Part shown: positions 52,331 to 58,105 of the stretch, piece by piece | Layout of the letters: every line of letters starts with the position of its first letter | Numbering within the stretch: the stretch's first letter is position 1 | DNA from: Candidatus Obscuribacterales bacterium | GTDB lineage: Bacteria > Cyanobacteriota > Vampirovibrionia > Obscuribacterales > Obscuribacteraceae | DNA length: 64,000 bases | Reading direction: 5' to 3' | Assembly: GCA_965228855.1 (NCBI GenBank) | Contig: CBDDIJ010000003.1 | Location: forward strand, 1,312,001-1,376,000 | The notes under the pieces: model-generated | Told to the model about the DNA's origin: nothing | The model's input: the letters and a program-made list of their open reading frames with translations, nothing else | Databases searched by the model: none | Program-made: the position numbers and the translations under genes

Positions 52331-53152
52331 TTAGTCTCTGGAATTGCGATTTCTCGATCTGCTGGAAGGTGGTTTTCTTCGCTCTGCTGTACTTCTGCTA
52401 CGCGATGGTACGGAGGTATCCGCGTCATCAGAAGAGGAAGCCCGTTTTACCGGCTCCGGCTTCTCCGATTTCTTCTGGCTCTGTTTGACATTCGTGGGTT
52501 TGTCGATGGCTCCGGAAGTGGTATCGTCAGCGGTGCTTTCCGCCGACGGAGTCAAAATTGTTTTCATAAGACCCGCCAGGAAAGGAGCACGCTCGCTTTC
52601 CATCTTTCCGGTGCGAGTAGCGCTTAGATAGGCTTCTGTCGCCATGGTTTGACCGACATTCTCTGAGACTGCGATTGTGGAAGAGACGCGATATTCGTTT
52701 AAGATTGCCAGTGCGACATCATACTTGCCCCGTGGCGATAGAAACCCATCTACGTAGGTGCGTTGTAGAATCAGAAGATTATCCTGAGCTAGAGCCGCTT
52801 TGCGTTCTGCTGCAAAATCGTATGCGCTTGCTATAGTAGGTTGAACCTGATCGAAAGGAATCTCCGGTATACCAGGAGCTTCAGCAACGGTTTCGGTAAC
52901 TACGGGAGAACCAAACCCCCGACTCGGTATTTCTACGCTAGGTTTGGCGGGGTCTTTCGCTGGGGGCGCTCCTGGAGACTCAGGTGCCACGTTGGACGGT
53001 TTGTCCGTATCCAGCAATTCCTCGTCTTCTACAAACATCCTTTTCGGTTTGGGCGGACGCCGCCCAAGCTCAACGGCAAGAGAAACGCAAGCCAAAAGTG
53101 CAAACAAAGCGGCAAATAGCCCGCTGCTTTCCACGATTGTGCCCACGTCCAT
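52331..53152 (-). CDS. Membrane-anchored hypothetical protein
   Basis: N-terminal TM; GGAG RBS; abuts the PrsW-kinase gene. Confidence 0.7.
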   Translation of the reverse strand: MDVGTIVESSGLFAALFALLACVSLAVELGRRPPKPKRMFVEDEELLDTDKPSNVAPESPGAPPAKDPAKPSVEIPSRGFGSPVVTETVAEAPGIPEIPFDQVQPTIASAYDFAAERKAALAQDNLLILQRTYVDGFLSPRGKYDVALAILNEYRVSSTIAVSENVGQTMATEAYLSATRTGKMESERAPFLAGLMKTILTPSAESTADDTTSGAIDKPTNVKQSQKKSEKPEPVKRASSSDDADTSVPSRSRSTAERRKPPSSRSRNRNSRD

Positions 53153-53277: not shown

Positions 53278-53306
53278 TTCACTGAATTTTGCCCGGCTTG
53301 CATAAT
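53278..53306 (+). promoter_or_regulatory. Candidate sigma70 promoter of the 53.4-55.3 kb operon
   Basis: TTCACT-N17-CATAAT. Confidence 0.4.
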
Positions 53307-53432
53307 ACTATGAAATCACTGTAGCCAATGACTTTGAGCATCGTAAACGATAGAAACCAAGCTTCAGTGGGAACTGTTTTCTGAGTCGATCTGAGCCGCT
53401 ATGATGGCGAAGGTTGTGGGAAGGAGGTAGTG

Positions 53433-53684
53433 ATGATGAATAACGACCCACGTTTGAACTTTCGCCCGGACGGCAGAACCGCTGTTCTCCACTTGCGTTT
53501 CGACGGTCTAAGCCGAGACATTGAACTGGATCTTCTGGACCTGGGCGTGGCCGCTTCCGACGCGTCGATAAGAGCGGTGGTTGCAAGATTCGTCGACGTT
53601 CCTGCAGCAAAGCTTAGCGAATACGTTGTGGAACGACACGAAAACGGCAATCTAACACTTCGCCCTGAAGCGGTATTTGGATGA
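53433..53684 (+). CDS. Small candidate ubiquitin-like modifier ending in Gly
   Basis: AAGGAGG RBS; about 83 aa with a beta-grasp-compatible pattern (HLRFDG-SRDI, helix, YVV, NLTLRPEAVFG-stop); upstream of a ThiF gene. Confidence 0.7.
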   Translation: MMNNDPRLNFRPDGRTAVLHLRFDGLSRDIELDLLDLGVAASDASIRAVVARFVDVPAAKLSEYVVERHENGNLTLRPEAVFG

Positions 53685-54634
53685 GCGACGATCCGTTGTC
53701 GTTGATCAGAAGTTTTTCCGACGCCGAGAAAAAATTGGCGTCGGAGATTTTTCTTGCGCCGTATGTGCCAGGTGGAAAGATCACCGTCAAAGTTAAGGGT
53801 GTCGTGCTTTCAGCATCAGTCGTTGACGAAGGTCCGCTTGCCGAAACGCCAGGATTCGGACTTTTTAGAATCACAGAATCATCCAAGGCCGGTTATGTTG
53901 CGAAGCCAACCTTCGCTCAAGTTGAGGCTTATCTGAAGCTGATGCCCAGAGTGAGCCTGACGCTAATTGAAGAATTCGATGGACACTGGTGGGGCGTGCA
54001 GGCACAGTCGTCGGATACAAGATTTGACTTGAAGGACCCGGTTCCGGTGCGCCTGACAGAACGCGGTGCGTCTTTCCAGCAGATATTCGCAAGATTCGAC
54101 GGCTCCTCGTTTTGGTACCAGTGTGAAAATCGTAGACGCGATCCTGTGATTGCGCGCAAGTTGCGGGATGCGTTGGACCGTGACGTCTTGCCGGACGAGG
54201 TACGGATCTCCGGCGCGACCCCGAGCGAATTGTTCGCCTATCGAATAATATTCTTCAGCCGGCACCCTGAACTAGCTCCTATAGAATCAGAGCCAGAACA
54301 GCAAGTTGCTGATGAATTTGTCGAGAGTTCATCGCAGGATTCGTTTTCAATGCAAGGAGGAGTGCACAGGAATCAGTGGGTCAACTCGGATTTGAGACGA
54401 CTGCGTGACGCCCTGGCTCATGCTGGCGCACGACTTGACGGATATTGGACAAACGGCTCAACCGAGATGACAGTTCGATATGTTGTGGACGGGCATTCAC
54501 ACACTGCGAACGTTCGACTTCATGATTTGACTGTAGTCAGTTCCGGAATTTGTCTAAGCGGGCGGGATGAAGATTTTGATCTGACCAGTCTTGTAGGTGT
54601 CATGCGCGAATTTCATAGAAACGAATACTACTGA
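53681..54634 (+). CDS. Hypothetical protein with C-terminal SGICLSG..FDLxSL Cys motif
   Basis: ATGA overlap with the upstream gene; 317 aa. Confidence 0.8.
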   Translation: MSDDPLSLIRSFSDAEKKLASEIFLAPYVPGGKITVKVKGVVLSASVVDEGPLAETPGFGLFRITESSKAGYVAKPTFAQVEAYLKLMPRVSLTLIEEFDGHWWGVQAQSSDTRFDLKDPVPVRLTERGASFQQIFARFDGSSFWYQCENRRRDPVIARKLRDALDRDVLPDEVRISGATPSELFAYRIIFFSRHPELAPIESEPEQQVADEFVESSSQDSFSMQGGVHRNQWVNSDLRRLRDALAHAGARLDGYWTNGSTEMTVRYVVDGHSHTANVRLHDLTVVSSGICLSGRDEDFDLTSLVGVMREFHRNEYY

Positions 54635-54645
54635 GGATTAAACCT

Positions 54646-55281
54646 GTGACTAAGTTGCATCATGAGGTTGTCTATCGAGGCAAAGAGACAATAAGCAGGC
54701 TCGGGGACGCTAGGCTGGTGGTATGCGGTGCGGGCTCGCTAGGCTCTAATCTTGTAACGCAGATATGCCGACAAGGTTTTAAGAACATATGCGTTGTGGA
54801 TCGCGACAGAGTCGAGGAGTCGAATCTTGGAACTCAAGTTTACTCTCTCGACGACATAGGTGCGCTCAAGGCCGAGGTATTGAGAAACTTGATCTATCGC
54901 GAGGTAGGCGAGGAAATCAGAGCTGTTTCTAAAGAACTCAACGATAAAACTGCGGCTAAGTTTTTAAGTGATTGCGACCTGGTTGTCGATGCCTTCGATA
55001 ACTCTGTTTCGCGTCGACTCGTGACTGATTTTTGCAAGTCAAATAGCGTTCCGTGCTTGCACATCGGTGTAAACGGCGACTACGGAGAACTGCGCTGGAA
55101 TGATAGGTACATCGTCCCCTCTGATGCAGGTGACGATGTTTGCGACTATCCTCTAGCAAGAAATTTGGTTCTGCTCGTAACTGCCGTTGCCGCTGAAGCG
55201 TTGATTCGCTTTATCCTCGATGGTTCAATGAAAAACTATTCGGTGACGCTGAGGGATCTTTCAGTGAACTGCGATGATTAA
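54646..55281 (+). CDS. ThiF/MoeB/E1-like adenylyltransferase without Zn CxxC motifs
   Basis: VCGAGSLG, DRDRVEESNLGTQ, KAE, DAFDN; a Cys in DVCDY. Confidence 0.9.
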   Translation: MTKLHHEVVYRGKETISRLGDARLVVCGAGSLGSNLVTQICRQGFKNICVVDRDRVEESNLGTQVYSLDDIGALKAEVLRNLIYREVGEEIRAVSKELNDKTAAKFLSDCDLVVDAFDNSVSRRLVTDFCKSNSVPCLHIGVNGDYGELRWNDRYIVPSDAGDDVCDYPLARNLVLLVTAVAAEALIRFILDGSMKNYSVTLRDLSVNCDD

Positions 55282-55593
55282 ACGCAGTTCGTTTATTGCA
55301 TTCGCTAGGAAACCTGAAGGAACGCAATGAGATTAACGCAGTCGCTCAGGGAACCTGAACGGACGCAATCAGTTTATTGCATTCGCTCAGGAACCTGAAG
55401 GAACGCAATGAGATTAACGCAGTCGCTCAGGGAGCCTGAACAGCCTCAATGAGTTTATTGCATTCGGTCAGGAACCTGAACGGACGCAATCAGTTTACTG
55501 CATTCGCTCAGGAACCTGAAGGAACGCAATGAAATTATGGCATTTGCTCAGGGAGCCTGAAGGAACGCAATGAGTTTATTGGACTCGCTCAGG
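55281..55593. repeat. Tandem array of 38-bp palindromes (7 full units plus 1 partial; 2-3 bp linkers)
   Basis: Units start at 55313, 55354, 55394, 55435, 55475, 55515 and 55556; consensus CCTGAAggaacGCAATgAGTTTATTGCATTCGCTCAGG; linkers GAA/AA/GAG. Confidence 0.93.
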
Positions 55594-55788
55594 GAGCCCG
55601 TCCCGTTAAAAATAAACATTGCAGTAATTCAAACACTTGAGCTAGAATCAATCTCAACACAAATTCCGAACAGCAGAGAATAACCGTACAAGCCGTTCGG
55701 AGAGTCATCATTTAAAAAGCTTGAGCTGAAAAAACATCCAATTTGGAAAGTTCCCCATTTGTACGGTAGTCATTCGGGGGTACTCGTC

Positions 55789-56592
55789 ATGTTTGAACGT
55801 TTGAATTCCTCTTTCCTCGATTCGCTCGAATCGAGTAGAGATTTCCGTAAACAACTTGCCCAGGAACGTTGGAGGGACGGTTTCAATTGTCCTCGTTGCG
55901 GCTGCACCAAAGGGTATGCCTTGCAGACGCGCGACATTGTCGAATGTGCAGGCTGCAAGAAGCAGACTTCATCGACATCCGGAACTGCTTTTCATGGCAT
56001 TAGACGACTGGTTGAATTTGGCAAGGCATTAAAAGATTTCTGCACGGGAAATCATATTTCGGCGGCGCAGCACGCGCGGAACTCTGGCATTGATCCTGGC
56101 ACAGCCTGGACTCATCTTCAGAAAATTCGTTCCGTTTTTGCGTCTGCACCGCTTGAAACCGCTTGCATCGATGTGCCCTGCACCATTTTTAAGCCGGCAT
56201 TGATCAAGCAAGGTAAGGAAGATGAGCACTATTGCGCGACTTCTCCGAAGGCGAGTGCTCAAGAAATCATCGCAGTCACGATTTTAAATTCAGCAACCGA
56301 ATCTAACGCCAAATTGCCTGCCTCCATGATTCATTCGGCATTGTCGTTTCTACTGTCTGTGTTTCGTGGCGTGAGCCGGAAATATTCCCAGCTTTATCTA
56401 GCTGAGTTCAACTGGATCGTAGAAGATAGAACGATCAGTTTTAGTGATGCTTTGGCGATGTGTCTGCGCGGTCACCCGATAATTCGCGATGATATAACAG
56501 ATTTTTCGTCTCCTTTTCTTTTGCGCATAGTGGATACGGAATTCGCCGGTTGTCGAGCGCCGCCGACGATCAAAATCGGCGCATTTGATTAG
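55789..56592 (+). mobile_element. IS1595-family transposase-derived gene, catalytic core apparently missing
   Basis: RW.DGFNCPRCG...CAGCKKQTSSTSGTAFH Zn-ribbon, HTH (ISAAQHAR...TAWTHLQKIR) and C-terminal FRGVSRKYSQLYLAEF; no recognisable DE/TD catalytic motifs. ORF open from 55759. Confidence 0.75.
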
Positions 56593-56668: not shown

Positions 56669-58105
56669 ATGATTGAAGACATCTTTTTTGACATCGCTTC
56701 GCAGTTTGGGATTGAAAAGGTTCCGCGCGCCCCTGAGTTTTTTCAATTCAACTCGACGGAAAAGCTTATGTCTGTCGAGGATTGGTTTAGGAACATTCTT
56801 GATGAGACGAAAGATCACTGCGTAGACTTCTCGAGAACAATAATCGAGAGCAGTTGTTGGTATGTCGAGATACAAGGAGACGGAGCGATTCGTTTACGCG
56901 ACGTCCATCAGGGTGAATTTGATCTGGCTATCGATCGCCAGGCTAAATCGGTAAAGGGAAAGAAGCGCGGACAGGGCGGGAAATTGCTTGCTATTTTCGT
57001 GGATGAGCCAAGAAACTACGCAACCAAGAACATGACAGGACGCGATCTCTTGAGGTCGTTAACAGATTCTGTAGACGGGCTACTTGTCCATCTACCGAAT
57101 AAAGCTGCCGTCGAATTTCCGCGTTCGGACTTTCGAGATTTCAACGGATTCGCTCAGATGTGTGAGCTTGAAGAGATGCTTCTCTTTCCAGCAAACAATC
57201 AGATCGAGAAGCTGCTGGAAGCGACATGGTTTGTAGAAAAAAACGAGGATGGTTCTCTACTTCTTAATTGGGCACCCGACTGTAAACAGCTAGTGCATGT
57301 ACACACTCATCCGAGCAAAGCCAGTTCGTTTGACGCTTATCGATTGAAGCCAATGAGCGGACATGAACTGTTTCATTCCCTTTTAGAGAATCAGACCGCC
57401 AATGGGATTGTCGTCAACCTGATCAGCACAATTGGAGTACAGCCATCTCTCAGGCAGTTGTTTCTGTCACGTTCGATAGTCAAAAACATAGTACAGGGGC
57501 TCGATACACGCGTAGGCGTGAATCCGCTGCCCATCCGACACACGGATGAGATCTCGGATTGGCTCGACATGCGCAAGTTCCCTGTTGCCGATCGAAAAAT
57601 TATCGACGCACCCTTCGAAGAGTATACTCTGTATCGAGCTGTGGTACCGCAGGGCTGCGAAATTTCTATGCAGGAAGCGGGTAAGCAAAGGGAGACGCCT
57701 GGACCGACCTGGAGTCCCGTGTTTATTCAGTCAAAAATAAGTCCGATCGCAAGCAGTGAGCCAAGTCGTATTGTCTGTCCAGGTTTTTACGCCGAGCAAC
57801 TGGGCGCGCATTTCCTTGTGGGTGGCTCTGACCCCAGGCGATTTAATCCTGGATCAAATTTTTTGATTGGCAAAAGGATCGATGACTACTCAATTGAGCA
57901 AGCGATGAGAAGAGAACGATGGGCGTCGGAACTTCTAAAATTTCTTCCTCCAGGAGGGGATACGATCCCTCGTGACGCTTTCCACACAGCCAAAGGTGCT
58001 TCTTTGGCTCAAGAATTTCCGCATGCAGCAAAACGAGACTGGATCGAAGCGACTTTGAAGCAGGCTCAGAAATTTACTAAACCTTGGGTCTGGTTCAACT
58101 CTTAG
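56669..58105 (+). CDS. Hypothetical protein, possibly tandem SseB-like domains
   Basis: 478 aa; internal repeat MTGRDLLRSL..DGLLVH / MSGHELFHSL..NGIVVN. Confidence 0.6.
   Translation: MIEDIFFDIASQFGIEKVPRAPEFFQFNSTEKLMSVEDWFRNILDETKDHCVDFSRTIIESSCWYVEIQGDGAIRLRDVHQGEFDLAIDRQAKSVKGKKRGQGGKLLAIFVDEPRNYATKNMTGRDLLRSLTDSVDGLLVHLPNKAAVEFPRSDFRDFNGFAQMCELEEMLLFPANNQIEKLLEATWFVEKNEDGSLLLNWAPDCKQLVHVHTHPSKASSFDAYRLKPMSGHELFHSLLENQTANGIVVNLISTIGVQPSLRQLFLSRSIVKNIVQGLDTRVGVNPLPIRHTDEISDWLDMRKFPVADRKIIDAPFEEYTLYRAVVPQGCEISMQEAGKQRETPGPTWSPVFIQSKISPIASSEPSRIVCPGFYAEQLGAHFLVGGSDPRRFNPGSNFLIGKRIDDYSIEQAMRRERWASELLKFLPPGGDTIPRDAFHTAKGASLAQEFPHAAKRDWIEATLKQAQKFTKPWVWFNS

Follow-up and report, generated by a model that had tools for sequence, protein, structure and literature searches.

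Our analysis has shown that three tightly linked genes of a Candidatus Obscuribacterales bacterium (GCA_965228855.1, CBDDIJ010000003.1:1,312,001-1,376,000, forward strand; this whole stretch of 64,000 nt is called the window) are the reduced core of a larger cassette found in bacteria and phages. The trio encodes a small ubiquitin-like protein (Ubl), a protein with an invariant cysteine (the Cys protein) and a minimal ThiF-type activating enzyme (E1). The larger cassette consists of Ubl, a Ro60/TROVE-like protein with a von Willebrand factor A (vWA) domain, Cys protein, an optional JAB peptidase and E1. We conclude that it is a real, conserved variant of the ubiquitin-like conjugation systems that is linked to the RNA biology of Ro60-like proteins and also occurs in large phages, with conjugation predicted from sequence. 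On balance, we lean towards a reading in which the Ubl is conjugated to a protein via a thioester relay linked to a Ro60-like ribonucleoprotein (RNP).

The trio and the larger cassette

An earlier, sequence-only reading of the window had described three linked genes, and their open reading frames (ORFs), coordinates, termini and motifs agree with that description; all three are on the plus strand. The Ubl gene begins at 53433 or 53436, ends at 53684 and encodes 83 or 82 aa that terminate in RPEAVFG, hence in a single Gly; AGGAGG lies 5′ of it at 53422-53427. It is joined by a 4-nt ATGA overlap to the Cys protein gene (53681-54634, 317 aa), whose Cys291 codon (54551-54553) belongs to the motif SGICLSGRDEDFDLTSLVG. 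The E1 gene (54646-55281) follows after 11 nt, starts with GTG and encodes a single domain of 211 aa, with Cys166 in DVCDY (codon 55141-55143).

The association of these genes is beyond chance. A genome scan gave 376 matches, of which the best 80 were kept, and a scan of viral contigs (IMG/VR) gave 14, for a combined 94 loci. Within 8 kb, E1 was present in 64 and Ubl in 43 of the 80 genome loci. Cys protein and E1 occurred together in all 14 viral loci. The whole trio was held by 42 of the 80 genome loci and, with Ubl in 12 of the 14, by 12 viral loci, so the expectation that it would recur elsewhere was borne out. Among the best 80 of the 376 matches, the named hosts include Melainabacteria, Cyanobacteriota, Planctomycetota, Abditibacteriota, Chloroflexota, Bacteroidota and others; the closest named relatives are Candidatus Obscuribacterales, at 95% identity.

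Clustering of the neighbouring genes revealed two further partners, a TROVE-like vWA protein and a JAB peptidase. The former, a helical plus vWA protein of ~480-530 aa, was present in 54 of the 94 loci, including all 14 viral ones. Its family profile matched two PDB entries, the TROVE-domain protein 9l5y (E 7.3e-5) and, weakly, Rsr 2nvo (E 0.08). The 9l5y match spans both the helical and the vWA parts, the Pfam vWA_Ro60 match is weak, and by these profiles the partner is read as a TROVE helical region followed by vWA. The JAB peptidase was found in 23 of the 94 loci (13 of the 14 viral), with its metal motif HxH..SxxD intact in every case; two of three JABs tested scored over the Pfam Prok-JAB cut-off. 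Outside the Obscuribacterales, a TROVE gene was present in all 43 loci with a Ubl match, and the order Ubl-TROVE-Cys protein-E1 was kept in 42/42 loci that include E1. JAB lay between Cys protein and E1 in 23/23 loci. A 595-kb GenBank phage carries all five genes in cassette order amid tRNA genes.

The sequence-only reading had also treated the trio as a candidate minimal operon. The linkage stands; the idea of a self-contained system does not, given that TROVE, often JAB, and tRNA-like genes are usual in the system. In the genome under study, the Ro60/TROVE-like gene lies past the window, 11 kb downstream of E1 (G000:C3:1378534-1380225, which is L095:4535-6226; family hidden Markov model E 1.8e-211). 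This genome, which is 95% complete, gave no match to the cognate JAB family at E 0.01; there is one weak match to Prok-JAB, on a different contig. In a phylogenetic tree, a quick one rather than a careful search, the window protein falls among Obscuribacterales relatives, and because several of these keep JAB, the sequences suggest that JAB was lost in this genome's lineage. Among 151 genomes of the class, the nine with a Cys protein are exactly those with TROVE, and the same two of them have two copies of each. Based on the distant TROVE gene, the JAB that was not found and this co-occurrence, we conclude that the window trio is a rearranged, reduced form of the cassette. No JAB would be needed for Ubl maturation here, since the window Ubl already ends in Gly.

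Several loci carry additional genes. An uncharacterized 241-aa family occurs in 10 loci, mostly between Ubl and TROVE (L071:1503-2228), and has a homolog in the genome under study (G000:C2:908678-909604). Short overlapping SEC-C-like ORFs are found in 8 loci, mostly at the same place (L071:2443-2662). In a Ktedonobacterales locus, an intein with LAGLIDADG domains lies inside the Ro60-like gene (L042:4246-7227). Two phages with divergent cassettes have transfer-messenger RNA genes downstream (L012:10686-11097 and L014:14213-14612), and the stretches retrieved from them showed no Ubl gene.

Properties of the three proteins

The small protein had been proposed to be a beta-grasp protein with a conserved terminal Gly, and both proposals held. 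Its AlphaFold2 model (pLDDT 83) is a beta-grasp with a 5-residue tail, and the fold-search matches of the model are beta-grasp domains, each weak singly. Residues G82, R76, P77, A79, H19, R21 and G24 are invariant in 81 aligned sequences, and the end is a single Gly (FG or YG), GG being absent. A profile search of 1.84 billion representatives retrieved 474 clusters at 50% identity. Among the best 150 remote homologs, 114 stop at the conserved Gly, 24 extend 1-215 aa beyond it (two more of an initial 26 were false motif matches and were dropped) and 10 are without the motif, counts that are biased towards Gly by a search profile that itself includes the residue. No match was found in Pfam, NCBIfam, PADLOC or PHROGs. 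Judged by modelled fold and terminal Gly, this is likely a ubiquitin-like modifier, with conjugation as a prediction. In six homologs (P0217, P0278, P0287, P0291, P0294 and P0234), the Ubl is N-terminally fused to passengers of 56-215 aa, one of them a vWA; these fusions are either JAB-processed precursors or artefacts of stop read-through.

E1 is the sole trio member with a family match (Pfam ThiF, E 1.8e-30). It has the features of the E1 superfamily, namely the ThiF domain, GxGxxG, and the Asp, Lys and DxxDN residues of the nucleotide site. Invariant positions in 58 sequences are R11, G28, G30, G33, D52, N60, Q64, K75, D118, N119, C166 and P169. The description of a compact ThiF without CxxC pairs was accurate: the window E1 has none, and CxxC was seen in 1 of 78 family E1 ORFs. 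Its score lies below all NCBIfam ThiF/MoeB/UbaA equivalog cut-offs shown, the best being 89.9 bits against a cut-off of 159. Cys166 sits after the E1 core, where a crossover-loop Cys is expected; in UBA5, this loop is described as bearing the catalytic Cys (C250) near its end (PMC11601596).

The Cys protein consists of an N-terminal helix, OB folds at ~20-76 and 77-153, a helical linker and a C-terminal alpha/beta domain at ~230-315. There are 287 homologs of similar length. In 97 homologs, collected without any Cys pattern, G289, C291, L292, D296, F299, D300 and S303 are invariant, and Cys291 is also kept in the 14 viral loci, which were found via a different motif. Thus, both cysteines singled out by the sequence-only reading are invariant in their families. 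Fold searches related the OB folds to those of uS17, IF1, cold-shock and RNase II/R domains, with OB domains of proteasomal ATPases as the top matches. The protein has no match in Pfam, NCBIfam, PADLOC or PHROGs. A Foldseek comparison of the model with viral structures gave S1/OB-type or unnamed weak rows only, and ESM Atlas gave no usable match (its model of a homolog is poor, pTM 0.24). No longer, fused forms were found, which is weak evidence by the tool's own note. L23 and L14, the only matches from PDB sequence searches, were discarded because their scores were at chance level.

The same reading had cast the Cys protein as a non-canonical conjugating enzyme (E2) or target. The invariant Cys291 agrees with this, yet identity as an E2 was not established. 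Pfam E2 families were absent from the 25 families shown for the 97 members, and hhalign against bacterial UQ_con/UBC E2s returned nothing, with one E2 subfamily compared by profile. No E2 fold was listed in whole-model fold searches, lists that the OB domain filled. The secondary structure of the Cys domain, H-E-E-E-E-Cys-H, is compatible in its order with the UBC fold, and the G[IV]CL that closes the helix and four-strand meander resembles, by eye, the G-x-CL of the E2s compared. An invariant, putatively catalytic Cys is present, and homology at the sequence or profile level and an HPN-type flap are not seen. We regard the Cys protein as a putative acceptor in the E2 role. Of 251 genomes from the phylum, 14 hold canonical UQ_con E2 genes, including 8/8 in one family (L102-L116).

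RNA and regulatory context in related loci

In 30 bacterial loci outside the Obscuribacterales, ARAGORN called 64 tRNAs in 154 kb (the interval from 1 kb before Ubl to the Cys gene) versus 0 in 172 kb after E1. Calls in this interval, many with odd anticodons, were made in 24 of these 30 loci and 9 of 12 viral loci, and in 0 of 12 Obscuribacterales-clade loci; the counts exclude L072, whose Ubl is broken. Rfam detected no YrlA in the nine loci scanned, the matches being tRNA. KptA/Tpt1 genes and NADAR genes were each found in 4 loci.

In 15 cyanobacterial loci (L054:7781-7865 and 14 others, with two copies in L086 and L094), the Cys gene is preceded by an 85-nt element that corresponds to positions 1093-1148 of the 23S rRNA model; part of the element also precedes this gene in one phage (L004:7221-7258). 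Its two-hairpin structure is kept, with 3 of 16 pairs co-varying. An Rfam rescan of L054:5300-8000 by E-value returned nothing, although the gathering scan matched the 23S model there. The element, which we take to be the L11-binding GTPase-centre domain, is a possible rRNA decoy. A match to the bacterial small signal recognition particle RNA (49.9 bits) lies just after the E1 gene of a phage locus (L002:11601-11690).

Tandem sites similar to the TrcR operator TGTAGTAT (PMC10272220; direct repeats also in PMC8421152) were found 23 times upstream of the Cys gene versus once downstream of E1. The scan covered 43 cyanobacterial loci, many of them close kin (314 kb upstream, 273 kb downstream; 17 loci with a site), and its pattern was relaxed after a first look. 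Examples are the sites at L054:1145 and L054:7671. TrcR is described as holding rtcB and a tRNA operon in repression until translation is under stress (PMC10272220), and the sites make the cassette appear to be wired to this translation-stress repressor in cyanobacteria. Because relatives carry tRNA or tRNA-like genes, the 23S-like element and TrcR-type operators, the context suggests a role in RNA or translation stress and not in cofactor synthesis or the defence of the host. On phages, the cassette would plausibly help to keep translation running against host RNA-cleaving defences, since it sits among phage tRNA genes.

Comparison with known systems

In the Bil operon, the order is described as Ubl-E2-deubiquitinase-E1, and the Bil Ubl has a single conserved Gly and is sometimes extended (PMC10557695). 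The cassette is similar to BilABCD in its separate Ubl, Cys-bearing second enzyme, JAB and E1. It differs in that its E1 is a single 211-aa domain without the inactive adenylation domain (IAD), CYS domain or zinc site, in the OB folds and undetected E2 homology of its second enzyme, in its built-in Ro60-like and RNA genes and in being common on phages. With neither the Bil E1 architecture (IAD, active adenylation domain, CYS) nor a BilB-type E2, and with no PADLOC or NCBIfam match to Ubl or Cys protein, it falls outside Bil. Bub is described as having a compact homodimer-type E1, a Ubl ending in Gly and JAB processing (PMC11601596). These traits are shared here, and our E1 weakly matches BubCD (E 2e-4). 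However, Bub (6E/DUF6527) has Tyr/Ser oxyesters, fusions and BubE, whereas here each of the two enzymes has an invariant Cys, no genes are fused and BubE/DUF6527 was absent from the annotated neighbours, which places the cassette outside Bub as well.

The eukaryotic modifier UFM1 ends in a single Gly. Like UBA5-UFM1-UFC1, the cassette has a minimal E1 whose crossover loop carries a Cys close to its end (E1 profile against UBA5, E 3e-13); unlike it, this E1 has no CxxC zinc site, and a UFC1-like E2 was not detected. At the sequence level, the similarity to UBA5 is of the kind shared throughout the ThiF superfamily and does not imply orthology. By analogy, we marginally favour a working mode like that of Bil or UBA5-UFM1, with a single Gly, a predicted Cys relay, JAB and no E3 ligase. 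In ThiS-ThiF and MoaD-MoeB, too, a stand-alone adenylating enzyme is paired with a beta-grasp protein that ends in Gly. The cassette differs from them in having no GG end, no ThiG, MoaE or rhodanese neighbours, and a second protein with an invariant Cys; its E1 lies outside the ThiF/MoeB equivalogs by score, by the lack of two CxxC zinc motifs and by the lack of thiG/moaE context.

In bacteria and phages, Ro60/Rsr proteins, composed of TROVE and vWA, are described next to RNAs that mimic tRNA (PMC4201824, PMC7790460, PMC7824862). The cassette resembles Ro60/Rsr loci with Y RNAs (rsr-yrlBA-rtcBA) in its TROVE plus vWA protein near tRNA-like genes. It differs in that the kinship of its partner to TROVE proteins of solved structure is distant (E 7e-5) and that Rfam gave tRNA rather than YrlA. 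The recurring neighbours that were annotated did not include RtcB.

Proposed mechanism and alternatives

The folds, invariant residues, gene order and co-occurrence described above are established; the chemical steps are ones that we infer. An E1 dimer would adenylate Gly82 of the Ubl, Cys166 would receive the Ubl as a thioester, and the Ubl would then move to Cys291 of the Cys protein, acting as E2. No E3 would be needed because the OB folds are proposed to select the target. The Ubl would finally be linked to a protein amine, most plausibly of the Ro60-like protein or of a bound translation or RNA-decay protein, and JAB, where present, would trim Ubl extensions and reverse the tag. One caveat concerns E1: the Arg of SNLNRQ in active E1 domains is a near-invariant Thr63 here, and Thr at this position is also seen in the inactive domain of yeast Uba1. 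A complex prediction (two E1, Ubl, the Cys domain as scored partner, and ATP) returned 'no answer' (score 0.01) and counts neither way.

The same relay could instead end on RNA. Candidate acceptors are RNAs that resemble tRNA, tRNAs with damaged ends and rRNA fragments, bound by the OB folds and the Ro60-like protein. The likeness of the tandem OB folds to RNA-associated domains, the strict link with the Ro60-like gene, the tRNA-like and 23S-like elements of relatives and the KptA/Tpt1 family genes would fit such an acceptor. We nevertheless consider it unlikely, as the best OB matches come from proteasomal ATPases, which handle proteins, and no RNA gene was found in the Obscuribacterales trios. 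It is also rather improbable that the Ubl serves as a sulfur carrier, forming a thiocarboxylate as ThiS, MoaD and Urm1 do, with the Cys protein thiolating RNA or a metabolite. Rhodanese, cysteine desulfurase, PP-loop, ThiG and MoaE proteins are absent from the annotated main clusters of recurring neighbours, and the single-Gly Ubl end and the E1 scores far under the equivalog cut-offs argue in the same direction.

A host antiphage system like Bil, in which conjugation of Ubl to phage proteins spoils virions, would agree with the Bil-like gene order and with a patchy distribution (9 of the 151 genomes in the class). However, the cassette is itself carried by the 14 IMG/VR contigs and by the 595-kb phage, Ubl and Cys protein are unknown to PADLOC, no defence genes recur among the annotated neighbours, and the cyanobacterial operators are of a translation-stress type. 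We therefore rate this as quite improbable. The earlier preference for protein or RNA modification or defence over cofactor synthesis is thus upheld in part: cofactor partners do not recur as neighbours, but host antiphage defence has become less likely because large phages carry the fullest version. We give just as little credence to a Cys protein that is itself the final target or a factor regulated by Ubl, with E1 acting alone and Cys291 serving otherwise in catalysis or metal binding. The undetected E2 homology and the invariant acidic D296 and D300 near Cys291, which could serve other chemistry, speak for it; the E2 position of the gene in the operon, usually adjoining E1, and the E2-like setting of G[IV]CL speak against it.

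Novelty and significance

Full-text literature searches, which covered main texts and did not reach one key review, found no publication that joins TROVE/Ro60 with a ubiquitin-like system. The word ubiquitin is absent from the main text of PMC4201824 and PMC7790460, and TROVE and vWA from that of PMC1779556. The cassette is apparently, and provisionally, undescribed in print. The bacterial ubiquitin-like conjugation systems Cap2, Bil and Bub have been described as antiphage immunity, shown or suggested; in contrast, the present cassette is linked with RNA mimics and a Ro60-like protein and has its fullest form on large phages. A bolder proposal, which we advance tentatively and think doubtful in its entirety, is an undescribed system of bacteria and giant phages in which a non-UBC, OB-fold 'E2' would reversibly tag the Ro60 RNP or RNA and so control the repair or fate of damaged tRNA and ribosomes. 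If conjugation proves true, the Cys proteins would be a new family of E2-role enzymes, the cassette would offer a testable handle on the function of bacterial Ro60 proteins, and phages would carry their own tagging machinery. The compact three-gene form of the window is a convenient set for reconstitution.

Surroundings of the trio in the window

Upstream of the Ubl gene, on the plus strand, ACTGAA (53281-53286), its reverse complement TTCAGT (53363-53368) and TATGAT (53400-53405) likely represent, as predicted from sequence, an operator pair plus a -10 box. In an alignment, ACTGAA ~82 nt 5′ of TTCAGT, followed by TATGAT, is kept before the Ubl gene in most Obscuribacterales-clade loci. The pattern TTCAGT-N24..34-DATGAT occurs in the window and in 8 of the 12 Obscuribacterales-clade loci with a Ubl gene, a count that is not independent of the sequences from which the pattern was derived; it has 36 matches genome-wide. 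A scan for sigma-70 promoters and terminators gave results at chance level, and no site in the window fits the TrcR pattern in its strict form.

Directly after the E1 stop lies a tandem repeat (55291-55593) of 7.5 copies of a 40-nt unit, each capable of forming a hairpin. It does not resemble a CRISPR array, as the units run head-to-tail without unique spacers. Elsewhere, the repeat was found only in the 95%-identical related locus L015, plus one 39-nt match in the genome under study, and it is probably a lineage-specific insertion rather than a conserved part of the system. As the sequence-only reading had noted, thiG, moaE and JAB are absent from the adjacent ORFs scanned (52331-53152, 55759-56592 and 56669-58105). 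The second of these encodes an IS1595-type zinc-ribbon protein with weak similarity to transposases, and the third encodes a 478-aa protein with a weak match to a type VII secretion-associated family (E 0.003).
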